Shown one piece after another: positions 3,952-50,620 of a stretch of 64,000 nucleotides of DNA. Under the pieces are notes generated by a model. That model did not search any database and was not told where the DNA came from. It saw only the letters and a program-made list of their open reading frames with translations. Every line of letters starts with the position of its first letter. The first letter of the stretch is position 1. The stretch spans positions 129,693-193,692 of the forward strand of contig CAVTIJ010000008.1 of the NCBI GenBank assembly GCA_963734885.1. Direction: 5' to 3'. Source of the DNA: an uncultured Bacteroidales bacterium (GTDB lineage: Bacteria; Bacteroidota; Bacteroidia; Bacteroidales; VadinHA17). The translations under genes were made by a program, and so were the position numbers.

Positions 3952-3971
3952 ATGATAGCCTGAAATAATAT

Positions 3972-4002
3972 AAAAAATCCCGGCATAATTCCGGGATTTT
4001 TT
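3972..4002 (+). terminator. Rho-independent terminator
   Basis: AAAAAATCCCGG-N7-CCGGGATTTTTT hairpin after the stop at 3951. Confidence 0.85.
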
Positions 4003-4060
4003 GTTTTTATGAAATGAAATCCATTTCTATAGACGCCCTATGTGAACTCACCCCTTCCCC

Positions 4061-4524
4061 CATAGCCGTCAACCTAAGCTTTGGGGATGAATGAGAAACT
4101 GCATAACAAAGTTCCCCTCCTTTTACATCTACAGGATTTCTGAGAAAGAGAAGGGGATCCTTCATTTCACTGGTACTCCGCAAGCTGCGTACCAGCGAAA
4201 TTCAGGATGACAATGTAATTTGGGGCTTGTAGGGGAAGGAAGCGGCGCCTTTTGAATCAATTCTTCTGAATAAAGAAATATTAGCACAAAAGGCGCCGCT
4301 TCCTTCCCCATTATTATCCCATAACAACCTGTCATCCTGAATCTTTCGCAAAATACATATATGAAGTAAATGATAATTTTATCTTGCGGAAGATGAAGGA
4401 TCTCCCAGGGACTACCTGAATTTTAATAAATGCGATGTAAGACAAGCCTACAAAAAAGGGGAAATGTATCTGATTTAATTTCAATACTTTAAACTTTATT
4501 CAACTCCTTAGGTTGACGGTTATG
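4061..4524. mobile_element. Non-autonomous IS-like cassette (MITE/MIC) with IS4/IS231-like ends
   Basis: 18-bp TIRs CATAGCCGTCAACCTAAG (4061-4078) and CTTAGGTTGACGGTTATG (4507-4524), 17/18 match. 10-bp direct repeats CCCCTTCCCC at 4051-4060 and 4525-4534. No ORF in the track. Confidence 0.85.
4156..4430. repeat. Multi-hairpin palindromic element, copy 1 (inside the MITE)
   Basis: 4156-4394 is identical to 4616-4854 (offset 460). Perfect 23-bp IR at 4232-4254/4287-4309 and 12-bp IR TTCAGGATGACA/TGTCATCCTGAA. Confidence 0.92.
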
Positions 4525-4615
4525 CCCCTTCCCCCTCTCTACTTCGTAGCTAATCTTTATAAACATCTTTTATTGATTCACTTTGATCTGCATCAAATTG
4601 GTGGATCGATAAGGA

Positions 4616-4883
4616 GATCCTTCATTTCACTGGTACTCCGCAAGCTGCGTACCAGCGAAATTCAGGATGACAATGTAATTTGGGGCTTGTAGGGGAAGGA
4701 AGCGGCGCCTTTTGAATCAATTCTTCTGAATAAAGAAATATTAGCACAAAAGGCGCCGCTTCCTTCCCCATTATTATCCCATAACAACCTGTCATCCTGA
4801 ATCTTTCGCAAAATACATATATGAAGTAAATGATAATTTTATCTTGCGGAAGATTCCCTAGGGATTACCTGAATTTTAATAAA
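4616..4883. repeat. Multi-hairpin palindromic element, copy 2 (outside the MITE)
   Basis: 239 bp identical to copy 1. It then lacks the terminal GAAGGATC arm and resumes similarity (ACCTGAATTTTAATAAA). Confidence 0.92.
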
Positions 4884-5152
4884 GTTTCAGCTAAGATTAT
4901 TTAGATCCTACTGTTTATTAAAGGAGTACTCCGAAAGCTGATTCTGTCAACGCTAAGGTATTTGATTAACTGACGAAGGAATTTAAAACCACAGCGTTTC
5001 CTGTTTCTTAATTCTTTCCACAGTAGTTTATCAGAATCTTTTGCATTACTTCGTAGTTCCCGTGCCTTCTTTTTTATGAGTTTTTAAATGGATTAGTTCG
5101 CCGTTAATAATTTCAATCAAAATTTTTTTTGTCATTCGAAGAATTTTATTTT

Positions 5153-5169
5153 ACTTTGCAGTTCAAAGT
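5153..5169. promoter_or_regulatory. Palindromic operator ACTTTG-N5-CAAAGT, site 1
   Basis: Just upstream of ATG 5179; the same motif recurs upstream of creD. Confidence 0.7.
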
Positions 5170-5178
5170 ACTTTTAAG

Positions 5179-5784
5179 ATGACCAAAATGGAAACAAGAA
5201 CAGATTATTCTGAGGATATAAAAACTATCAAAAGGATCATGGAGGAATCTTCAAGATTTCTGTCACTGAGCGGTTTATCAGGGATTTTTGCAGGTTTTCT
5301 GGCTTTTTTGGGAGGATTTGTCGCCTATTTTCTGATGCTTCAGAAAAATCAGGATAGCTCAATTCTTAAAATAGAAATTATAGTTATTGCAATAATAGTT
5401 CTGGTCCTCGCCCTGGCCGGCTCATTCTATTTCTCTATAAGGAACGCCAGGAAGAAAGGACAAAAAGTATGGGCACCAGTTTCACGGCGACTGTTATTGA
5501 ATTTGTTCATCCCTCTTGCCACAGGTGGATTTTTTATTCTGATACTATATTTTGACAACCAGTTGCAGCTTATAGTCCCTGCCATGCTGATTTTTTACGG
5601 ACTTTCACTGGTAAGCGCTGGCAAGTTCACTTACAACGAAATCTTCTATCTTGGTCTGGCTGAGTTGATAACCGGGTTTATTGCTGCTATTTTCCAGGAT
5701 CATTTCATTCTGTTCTGGATCTTCGGTTTTGGGTTCCTTCATGTCATCTATGGTCTAATAATGTACAGAAAATATCAAGGATGA
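5179..5784 (+). CDS. Multi-TM membrane protein of the creD-associated locus
   Basis: About 6 hydrophobic segments and an IKRIMEESSRFLSLSGLSG N-terminal motif; overlaps the start of the regulator gene. Confidence 0.75.
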   Translation: MTKMETRTDYSEDIKTIKRIMEESSRFLSLSGLSGIFAGFLAFLGGFVAYFLMLQKNQDSSILKIEIIVIAIIVLVLALAGSFYFSIRNARKKGQKVWAPVSRRLLLNLFIPLATGGFFILILYFDNQLQLIVPAMLIFYGLSLVSAGKFTYNEIFYLGLAELITGFIAAIFQDHFILFWIFGFGFLHVIYGLIMYRKYQG

Positions 5785-6077
5785 AAACCGATATATCAGG
5801 CTTAAATAAACTTTTTGAAAACCGGGTACGGCTTGGAATAATGTCGATTCTGGCTGTAAATGAATCAAGTGATTTTACCGATCTTAAGGAATCTCTCTCT
5901 GTGACCGATGGTAACCTTGCAAGCCACCTTAAAGCACTGGAAGAGGGGAAGGTTATAATGGTCAATAAACAGTTTATCGGAAGAAAACCAAATACAAGTT
6001 ATTCTATCACTGAATATGGCACGTACCTGTTTCGCAATCATATAAATGCACTCGAAAATCTTATTAAATCACAATAA
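5781..6077 (+). CDS. Winged-HTH transcriptional regulator (HTH_34, ArsR/MarR-like)
   Basis: RVRLGIMSIL...TDGNLASHLKALEE...GRKPNTSYSIT motif. Confidence 0.88.
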   Translation: MKTDISGLNKLFENRVRLGIMSILAVNESSDFTDLKESLSVTDGNLASHLKALEEGKVIMVNKQFIGRKPNTSYSITEYGTYLFRNHINALENLIKSQ

Positions 6078-6093: not shown

Positions 6094-6110
6094 ACTTTGC
6101 AATTCAAAGT
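6094..6110. promoter_or_regulatory. Palindromic operator ACTTTG-N5-CAAAGT, site 2
   Basis: ACTTTGCAATTCAAAGT, 24 nt upstream of the creD ATG. Confidence 0.7.
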
Positions 6111-6134
6111 ACTTTTAAATAAATATGCATTACT

Positions 6135-11001: not shown

Positions 11002-11176
11002 TCAGAATCGAGATTTGTTCAACGTCAATACCAAGTACGGAAAAATAAATGTTAGTTAAAATATTTAGTCCCTTTTTTAAGTCTTTATACTTAGCCATTC
11101 ATGTTCAGTGACCTTTGTGGTTAAAAGAAAAAAAATTACTACTTTTCAGTGTTAAAACTAAAAACATCCTAAAGCT

Positions 11177-17631: not shown

Positions 17632-18249
17632 ATGATTAAGAATCTCATTTTTGATCTGGGGAATGTTCTTATCAGCTTTAAGCCGTCTGAATACTTTGAT
17701 AAGAAAAAATATCCTGTAAATATTAAAGCCACCATCCTGGCTGATATTTTCGGAAGCAAAGAATGGCAAATGCTCGATAAGGGGGAAATCTCTACCCCGG
17801 ATGCGATAAATGCTATCGCAAAAAGCTCATCTCTTAAAACAGAAGAAATAATCCATATTTTCAATTTACGGACTGATCTGATGTTTCCCCTCGATTCAAA
17901 CGTCAAGCTCCTTCCTGGATTGTTAAAACGGGGTTTTAAGCTATATTATCTGTCAAACTTTCCACTCGACATTTTTGACGAAGTCAGATCGGGCTATTAT
18001 TTCTTTAAATATTTTGATGGGGGATTAATTTCTGCCGAAGCTAAATCAGCAAAACCTGATAAAAGGATTTATGAAATTCTTATGGAAAGATATTCCCTGA
18101 TAGCTGAGGAGTGTCTTTTCATTGACGACACTGAAGTGAATGTCACTACAGCCCGGAGTTTTGGTATGACGGGTCTTTTTACAAACGGGTCGCTTGAAAT
18201 AGCAAAAGAGGTCGAGAGGGTTTTGAAGAACTCAACAGGAATAAATTGA
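17632..18249 (+). CDS. HAD-family phosphatase (YihX-like)
   Basis: FDLGNV, LSN, KP and FIDD motifs. Confidence 0.9.
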   Translation: MIKNLIFDLGNVLISFKPSEYFDKKKYPVNIKATILADIFGSKEWQMLDKGEISTPDAINAIAKSSSLKTEEIIHIFNLRTDLMFPLDSNVKLLPGLLKRGFKLYYLSNFPLDIFDEVRSGYYFFKYFDGGLISAEAKSAKPDKRIYEILMERYSLIAEECLFIDDTEVNVTTARSFGMTGLFTNGSLEIAKEVERVLKNSTGIN

Positions 18250-18254
18250 AATCC

Positions 18255-18373
18255 TTTAACCACAAAGGTCACTAAGGAAGAACACAAAGAACACAAAGTC
18301 CGGAAAACTATCGGATGAAGTGGGTTTTAACTTTGTGCCCTTTGAGCCTTCTTTGTGCTCTTTGTGGTTAAAA
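18255..18373. repeat. Intergenic inverted element built from CACAAAG units (AACCACAAAG...CTTTGTGGTT)
   Basis: Four CACAAAG-like units, a spacer, then four inverted units. Related copies at 35628 and 50384. Confidence 0.85.
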
Positions 18374-35620: not shown

Positions 35621-35627
35621 GACATTT

Positions 35628-35730
35628 TTAACCACAAGGCACAAAGTTATTACGCAAAGGTCACAAAGGTTTAAAATATAAGGTTTCAACTTTGTGCCCT
35701 TTGTGCCTTCCTTGTGTGCTATGTGGTTAA
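35628..35730. repeat. AACCACAAAG-type inverted element
   Basis: Same unit architecture as the copies at 18255 and 50384. Confidence 0.82.
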
Positions 35731-35829
35731 TGGATTTTTTGTTGATATCCTGAATTGAAGATAAAAGAATATTTTTTTCTTTAAATAAACCATTTGTAGT
35801 AATTTGCAGGCAAATTAAAAGACAAAAAG

Positions 35830-43224: not shown

Positions 43225-43298
43225 ACCCCCTTCCCAACCTTCCCCCACGGGGGAAGGAGTTAGTACAAACTTTTCCCCGTTGGGGAAAGAAAGGGGGT
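43225..43298. repeat. CCCCCTTCCCAACCTTCCCCC-type double-hairpin element
   Basis: Near-identical copy at 45652-45727. Confidence 0.85.
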
Positions 43299-50301: not shown

Positions 50302-50383
50302 GGTAAAATCATATTGATCAGGAGAAAAAACGTGACTTGTTAACAGGTATTGGATTTTATTAACAACAAGAAATCCAAATCCA

Positions 50384-50522
50384 TTAACCACAAAGGTCAC
50401 AAAGGAAAACACAAAGAACACAAAGGGTAAATTCACTTATTGCAGATTTTTTGAGGTCCCCAATCTGTTTGACCATCTTACTTTGTGTACTTTGTGCCTG
50501 CTTTGTGTCCTTTGTGGTAAAA
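50384..50522. repeat. AACCACAAAG-type inverted element
   Basis: Same unit architecture as the copies at 18255 and 35628. Confidence 0.85.
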
Positions 50523-50620
50523 AGCAGCTTTAGCGAAATTACCTGTGGGACAGGATGAGAATTTGTTAAAGAACATTTTGTAACAATGGTTGTTACTGGT
50601 TGTAATTAAATTGATAAAAT

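Follow-up and report, generated by a model that had tools for sequence, protein, structure and literature searches.

The 464-bp unit at positions 4061-4524 of the window (the whole 64,000-nt stretch of DNA analysed here, G000:C8:129693-193692) is very probably a gene-less miniature transposon of the IS231 type (IS4 family), which has spread whole to seven loci of its host genome, likely through a transposase acting in trans with a preference for G/C-run words, and which is likely a composite built stepwise. Its parts are of known kinds, namely IS231 cassettes and repeat-targeting IS4 elements, and it is the nested form that appears to be new; a literature search, with ISfinder and most subscription papers outside its scope, returned no paper on the element, on a DUF559 cassette with IS231 ends, or on such nesting. 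How palindromic repeat families lacking a RAYT partner (the CGTC type) spread is an open question in the excerpted text of PMC3733652, and the locus together with its relatives offers one likely route, in which classical IS4 transposases move repeat dimers and a repeat-flanked DUF559 nuclease gene, apparently from one species to another. It also adds the Bacteroidota to the range of IS231-type elements and cassettes, and provides matched pairs of transposases and ends that avoid genes, which makes the question of targeting directly testable. The 464-bp element itself is probably neutral.

Anatomy of the window copy

The unit is bounded by 18-bp inverted ends that agree at 17 of 18 positions. 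The left end, CATAGCCGTCAACCTAAG, spans 4061-4078 (+ strand), fits the IS231-like pattern CAT-N7-AA-N2-TAA and is identical to the ends of two autonomous IS4 elements (L083/L084), and its inverted counterpart lies at 4507-4524 (- strand). An exact 10-bp target duplication, CCCCTTCCCC, is found at 4051-4060 and 4525-4534. On re-measurement, the length, ends, duplication and coordinates given in the first-pass annotation were all correct, as was its statement that no transposase lies inside: no ORF of at least 80 aa from a start codon occurs in the unit, and the longest ATG-ORF has 57 aa. Short, non-coding, with inverted ends and duplications and present in multiple copies, the window copy is a MITE. 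A MIC (MIC231) is described as two IS ends, without a transposase, around one or more genes, and a conserved CA region beside the left end is reported for MIC231 (excerpts of PMC6199540); the window copy is not one because it contains no gene, whereas its ancestral 726-bp form is. The unit sits in 1.2 kb of intergenic DNA, flanked on one side by a 275-aa gene that belongs to no Pfam family and on the other by a membrane-type gene of 201 aa, with a terminator-like hairpin (3970-4004) just upstream of it, in a genome of 4.3 Mb that is 95.35% complete and has 39% G+C.

From the outside inwards, the nest consists of target repeat, IS231-like shell, DUF559-cassette hairpin, IS50-like mini-element and repeat dimer. 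The earlier reading was right that the unit is inserted in a repeat and bears a cargo, but the depth is five levels, not three. The 5' part of the target, a C-run repeat (4045-4060, + strand), ends in the left duplication copy, and the right copy continues into the remainder of the target repeat arm (4525-4550, +). Inside the left end, a subterminal spacer (4079-4111, +), also present in the 726-bp DUF559 cassette and in the 170-bp form that lacks the gene, leads to the left arm of the hairpin that flanks DUF559 in the ancestral cassette (4112-4124, +), which is the target of the inner element. This inner element, an IS50/Tn5-like mini-element (4123-4446, +), retains neither end intact: the left is mostly deleted, leaving a 7-base remnant (4123-4129), and the right (4430-4446) carries 3 changes in 17 positions. 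It holds two TGTC-tagged palindromic repeats, each with an extended inner hairpin, of 58 nt (4155-4212, -) and 74 nt (4330-4403, +), which face a central purine/pyrimidine hairpin of the dimer (4232-4309, unstranded) with a 23-bp perfect stem in this subfamily. The decayed right arm of the DUF559-cassette hairpin (4447-4464, +) and a right subterminal region (4465-4506, +), which is some 33 bp longer in the cassette relatives, complete the shell.

Copies in the host genome

Ten near-full copies of the unit, with 93-98% identity, occupy seven loci of the host genome. Exact 10-bp duplications of three different sequences flank the copies in the window, at C1:127426 and at C4:373856, while C6:97680 and, at C8:292-294 kb, the units of a tandem array with a 575-bp period show duplications with one mismatch; at the other two of the seven loci (C4:1003596 and C7:44727), the flanks are inverted rather than direct, as expected of recombinants. 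The end pattern matches 12 times in this genome, compared with none for a reversed control pattern. Ten copies, seven loci, varied duplications and the lack of control matches show that the unit is not a product of chance. The anticipated further copies, bounded by the same inverted ends but with different duplications (five of the seven loci have distinct 10-bp duplications) and carrying the same repeat dimer, thus exist, and the distinct duplications suggest that a cognate transposase would have mobilised the unit in trans. All seven loci lie outside ORFs of at least 150 aa. Each of the ten composite copies has lost most of the inner left end and has an altered inner right end, and since these eroded ends are common to all, later spread used the outer ones.

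Several of these loci have further features of their own. The array (G000:C8:292237-294320) has a period made up of the composite element, 109 bp of target and an IS50-like end, and resembles the outcome of repeated unequal crossing-over between duplications. At G000:C7:44570-45606 (L401), a deeper nest comprises an older outer-type left end, a hairpin, an IS50-like mini-element with an exact 9-bp duplication, a target repeat and the composite, both ends of which lack, symmetrically, the outermost 5 bases; a decayed remnant of the DUF559 cassette follows. Another dispersed repeat family, of short ACAAAG-type units, occurs in the window at 18234-18373, 35625-35737, 50362-50523 and 11098-11150, and the composite copies at C1 and C6 adjoin it.

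Outer ends and their transposase

Of 212 genomes of the genus, 86 contain the end pattern, with as many as 77 matches in a single genome, compared with at most one match per strand for the reversed control. In a phylum sample, 13 of 301 genomes match at one mismatch, and several matches are seen only in the host genome and one other; the pattern is therefore patchy outside the genus. Records with the pattern in the public genome collection are mostly titled Bacteroidota, many of them Bacteroidales. Both window ends fit the IS231 signature CAT-N7-AA-N2-TAA (Table 1 of PMC2266710), and 13 of 17 end positions match an end of ISBce4, which is listed under IS231 in the same source.

IS4 transposases were sought in 41 end-rich genomes, with 50 loci (30 and a further 20) inspected. 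Autonomous IS4 elements of 1.6 kb, with the same 18-bp ends and exact 10-bp duplications, were found in same-genus genomes, one of which (G148) has ends identical to those of the window copy. Their transposases pass NF033592 at 194-222 bits. Judged by the IS231 criteria D(60-110)D(100-150)E, Y(2)R(3)E(6)K and a duplication of 10-12 bp, the protein encoded between identical ends in L084 qualifies: its DDE residues are separated by spacers of 70 and 137, and its YREK motif is complete. The resemblance to the IS231 subgroup, proposed in the first-pass annotation, is borne out by the end signature, the 10-bp duplications and these YREK transposases with identical ends in relatives. IS231 is the nearest named group but a distant one: the outer transposase is 31% identical to ISBce4 and 39%, over a partial alignment, to a Clostridium IS4 transposase, whereas many pairs among described members exceed 50%. 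A search of the PDB found no relative of it. As for an autonomous transposase with the same ends, the prediction holds for genomes of the same genus but not for the host itself (95.35% complete), where NF033592, NF033590 and tblastn with 10 outer transposases returned no cognate enzyme. The only two PF01609 matches of the host were considered as partners and rejected; they are unrelated, and such ends are absent from their loci. In L084 (1440-2813) and related outer transposases, there is no ATG near the start and the conserved region begins well before the first ATG, which suggests a non-ATG start or low-level expression.

The system shares with IS231/MIC231, as described in the excerpts of PMC2266710, the end signature, 10-bp duplications, a YREK transposase, transposase-less derivatives with passenger DNA and G/C-rich target ends. 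It differs in that the host belongs to the Bacteroidota, whereas those excerpts describe the subgroup as almost only from Bacillota. In addition, IS231A targets GGG-N5-CCC (excerpts of PMC2577343), whereas the targets here are of 10 bp with the form S3-N4-S3, often CCC..CCC. Unlike MIC231, the window copy has no gene, and the passenger in this family is a repeat-flanked DUF559 module or nested elements.

Target choice

Among 115 paired elements with 70-bp flanks, the 10-bp duplication is exact in 28 and has one mismatch in 11, and an exact 9-bp duplication is found in seven. Another 56 of the 115 show at least four mismatches in the 10-bp comparison, some of which have 9-bp or 11-12-bp duplications, the others being recombinants or old. 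At least five of the six terminal positions are G/C in 31 of the 39 good duplications, against a background of 4.1%, and in all 25 genus-level duplications (two of which are units of one array). The targets are intergenic repeats with G/C runs. That of the window copy is a rare C-run repeat with one empty paralogue, at G000:C8:230544. It had been likened to the repeat family at 43225 and 45652 of the window, and a C-run word is indeed shared, but nothing beyond it; membership of that family was rejected, the target being a different and rarer repeat. The two DUF559 genes of the host genome are flanked by a repeat whose gene-less form constitutes the 43225/45652 family (52 copies), and the copy at C4:373856 does sit in this DUF559-flank repeat.

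A close precedent is ISRm22 (IS4) in the REPs of Sinorhizobium meliloti, where, according to the excerpts of PMC1525189, IS4 insertions are concentrated in G/C-rich extragenic repeats; hybrid copies without matched duplications are likewise known for repeat-targeting IS (excerpts of Tobes and Pareja 2006, PMC1525189). In contrast to ISRm22, two IS4 subgroups and their non-autonomous forms here both target and carry repeats, and the outer element uses several repeat families instead of one site. In L111, L161, L172, L184, L204 and others, with Chitinophagales or Cytophagales titles, the same outer ends occur in a different palindromic repeat with a GTG..CAC core, with duplications of 9-10 bp; target preference thus differs between lineages with the same ends.

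An alternative concerns what the transposases recognise. Instead of a G/C-rich word, they may read a hairpin structure or a repeat-bound protein, and the DUF559 cargo may help to create targets. All seven loci fall outside long ORFs, although 477 of the 813 CCC-N4-CCC/GGG-N4-GGG words of the host genome are inside ORFs; one copy lies in the DUF559-flank repeat; the DUF559 cargo is under purifying selection; and inner elements have struck hairpin centres repeatedly. On the other hand, the reconstructed outer targets fold with a median z of -1.6, compared with -0.1 for controls (below -2 in 38%, compared with 12-15%). As this is just modestly above the controls and the intergenic bias is equally explained by selection against gene disruption, sequence preference combined with such selection suffices, and recognition of structure is unlikely. 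It bears on targeting only and is compatible with the preferred explanation, a miniature IS231-type transposon moved in trans.

A DUF559 cassette as probable ancestor of the shell

A 726-bp element in G010 has the ends and subterminal sequences of the window copy, with a 127-aa DUF559 gene (E 3.9e-22 to PDB 3hrl) between two inverted hairpins. Near-full copies of it are present in about 10 genomes of the genus. The cassettes are 90-97% identical, compared with 67-77% for the gene neighbouring the window copy, used as a marker in 10 genome pairs; a cassette far more alike than the marker, albeit a single one, points to horizontal transfer, and the cassette appears to have moved between species. 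The dN/dS of DUF559 relative to G010 is 0.04-0.43 in 23 of 24 intact ORFs (the remaining one is saturated), which would place the cargo under purifying selection.

Presence of the ends was also assessed in a protein-seeded metagenome scan that is blind to them, covering the best 80 of 385 DUF559 relatives and eight further loci. Among the loci of this set that are scorable on both sides, both outer ends are found in 22 of 25 with DUF559 identity of at least 85%, in 6 of 12 at 60-85%, and in none of 24 below 60%. End presence tracks DUF559 identity, so that one DUF559 clade seems to have been captured and to have radiated inside these ends; the module also occurs free of outer ends, as in L254. 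In G047, a 170-bp form has lost the gene and collapsed to one hairpin, and a hairpin arm is kept in 68 of the 115 paired elements. The shell in the window is likely the gene-less remnant of the 726-bp cassette.

The inner IS50/Tn5-like mini-element

Free copies of the cargo in the host genome have inverted ends of their own, of 17-19 bp, and are centred in the same DUF559-cassette hairpin; six of seven positions of the IS50 end signature are matched in them. Of 11 paired inner-type elements in this genome, three have an exact 9-bp duplication and three have one with a single mismatch; the corresponding numbers across all sequences examined are 11 and 5 of 46. Among 212 genomes of the genus, 43 contain the inner end pattern, and the control pattern has no match. 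A 1772-bp element of G147, bounded by the same end and showing an exact 9-bp duplication, encodes a transposase that passes NF033590 and matches the Tn5 transposase. The inner transposases of L288, L293 and L259 score 310-332 bits with this model and match the Tn5 transposase in the PDB (E 2.4e-25). NF033590 and a search with the inner transposase found no cognate Tn5-like enzyme in the host genome.

Intermediate forms of the nest are found in relatives. In G175 (L293), the same outer shell encloses an autonomous IS50-like element that has an exact 9-bp duplication; in G167 and G129 (L295 and L272), it encloses a 296-bp mini-element with the dimer; and in one array (L297), both hairpins are occupied by inner elements. 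The assignment to IS50/Tn5 is consistent with the end signature, the 9-bp duplications, where this subgroup makes ones of 8-9 bp, and a cognate transposase that has PF14706 and similarity to the Tn5 transposase. The inner element differs from IS50/Tn5 in being non-autonomous, in having a repeat dimer as its load and in its strong preference for the centres of hairpins; in the window, it is moreover immobilised inside another IS4 element. Some IS50-like mini-elements of relatives have an IS200-like Y1 transposase gene as passenger (L303:999-2182, by PF01797; L027:1643-2437, by NF033573; and L313:490-1420, by sequence likeness only), and those of L027 and L313 are themselves within IS231-type ends.

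The repeat dimer as cargo

TGTC tags number 185 in the host genome, compared with 22 in one shuffle, and form 69 dimers, a perfect stem of at least 10 being present in 77 of 80 dimers. Only 21 of the 69 are near inward-facing IS4-type ends, most being outside such ends; the 464-bp unit is therefore one minor vehicle of the family. Thus, the idea that it is a vehicle spreading a structured element is sustained insofar as the other copies bear the same cargo, but it accounts for little of the distribution of that cargo.

The cargo looks like a family of DNA palindromes near CGTC REPs, not a known RNA. As in the excerpts on CGTC REPs (Di Nocera 2013, PMC3733652) and on Ssn/NTS-SRM (PMC11893778), a terminal CGTC/TGTC tag precedes a palindrome, units are paired in opposite orientation, repeats are intergenic, and a small GIY-YIG gene adjoins one dimer of the same plan (G000:C3:16.3-16.9 kb). 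In contrast to the stem of 8-9 bp and loop of 4-5 nt of CGTC REPs, the inner loops are expanded to give units of 58 and 74 nt here, although the commonest tagged unit in the host genome has 27 nt, and there is a third, central hairpin. The published degenerate SRM motif of Ssn has no match in the element and four in the genome, compared with five in one shuffle, and membership of the cargo in Ssn (SRM/NTS) was rejected.

The copies may in principle have been spread by the machinery of the dimer, that is, by a GIY-YIG/Ssn-like nuclease or by recombination and gene conversion, with the IS4 ends dragged along. The dimer family does outnumber the composite family (69 versus 10), the GIY-YIG gene lies beside a dimer of the same plan, homogenisation is real locally (4157-4394 equals 4617-4854), and one locus is the 575-bp tandem array. 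Yet the boundaries of the copies coincide exactly with the outer CAT/ATG ends, and at five loci these are accompanied by fresh 10-bp duplications, which are the mark of the autonomous IS4 partners and not of the dimer; these duplications largely refute this scenario and leave it highly improbable.

Least credible of all, barely worth retaining, is the view that the mini-transposon spreads a structured RNA with a function, or an RNA element that regulates in cis: the fold is very stable (z = -11.8 as RNA and -13.1 as DNA), two-sided changes affect 23 of 72 predicted pairs among 12 inner elements and the cargo lies just after the terminator-like hairpin, but Rfam gave 35 weak matches, none at the gathering cut-off (the best being generic hairpin miRNA models at half the score), no pair of the 22-pair central stem is kept through a one-sided (G-U) change, as a two-strand DNA palindrome predicts, the loop is inverted between copies, the two repeats swap inner hairpins, the two-sided changes are mostly one inherited subfamily split, and the architecture, with its perfect stems, is that of a dispersed repeat.

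Proposed origin of the composite

Under the preferred explanation, that of an IS231-type miniature transposon moved by its outer ends, four steps may be envisaged, the order being read from present-day forms and not from a tree. IS231-type ends would first have captured a DUF559 gene together with the hairpins on either side of it; the result was the 726-bp cassette, which may have moved between species. An IS50/Tn5-type mini-element with a dimer of TGTC repeats would then have entered those hairpins, a repeatedly struck site. Loss of the gene would have followed, most likely when the two hairpins, or inner elements seated in each of them, recombined with one another, because the left flank in the window matches the left hairpin and the right flank is closer to the right one. 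Finally, the inner ends would have eroded, after which the outer transposase may have copied the whole composite. The cargo would be a DNA repeat that travels as a passenger and belongs to a larger family of its own.

A broader scheme is distinctly unlikely: a self-reinforcing mobile guild in which IS231-type ends carry the DUF559 nuclease module across species, the nuclease, maintained by purifying selection, multiplies G/C-run hairpin repeats, and these repeats serve as favoured landing pads for both the IS231-type and the IS50-type transposases, which ferry orphan CGTC-type repeats that have no known transposase. If it held, a single complete round of this cycle would be fossilised in the window element.

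The adjoining element and orthologous spacers

The target repeat that received the unit was struck again at 4551 by another IS50-like end. This second mini-element (4551-4902, +; left end 4551-4569, right end decayed) adjoins the first, and its repeat-dimer core (4617-4854) repeats the cargo 460 bp downstream, a feature overlooked in the first-pass annotation, with no difference from 4157-4394 in 238 bases. Some variants in the shared core are seen in none of the eight other composite copies in the alignment; identity together with private variants therefore argues for recent gene conversion or local duplication. The 10-mer at 4541-4550, immediately ahead of the second IS50-like end, is found again some 500 bp further on at 5047-5056, where no matching right end precedes it, and may be a remnant duplication or a chance match.

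An empty site in related genomes was also anticipated. Among 30 loci of the upstream gene, 10 are syntenic within the examined flank, and eight of these spacers are without ends, the other two being those of the host and of G150. The target repeat is found in none of the orthologous spacers of the 10 syntenic loci, so that the expected site does not appear at base resolution, because the relatives are too diverged; no contig from four soil runs bridges the window site. In G150, a member of the same shell family has inserted independently: the spacer orthologous to window 3952-5178 contains a 439-bp shell member (L397; G150:C6) with an internally deleted DUF559 module, and the spacer is possibly a hot spot.

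Downstream of the unit, a 25-bp direct repeat (96%) at 5153-5177 and 6094-6118 lies upstream of two genes of an operon that includes a winged-helix regulator (5781-6077) and a gene that we take to be CreD-like. The 25-bp motif is conserved in orthologous spacers and is likely an operator or promoter.
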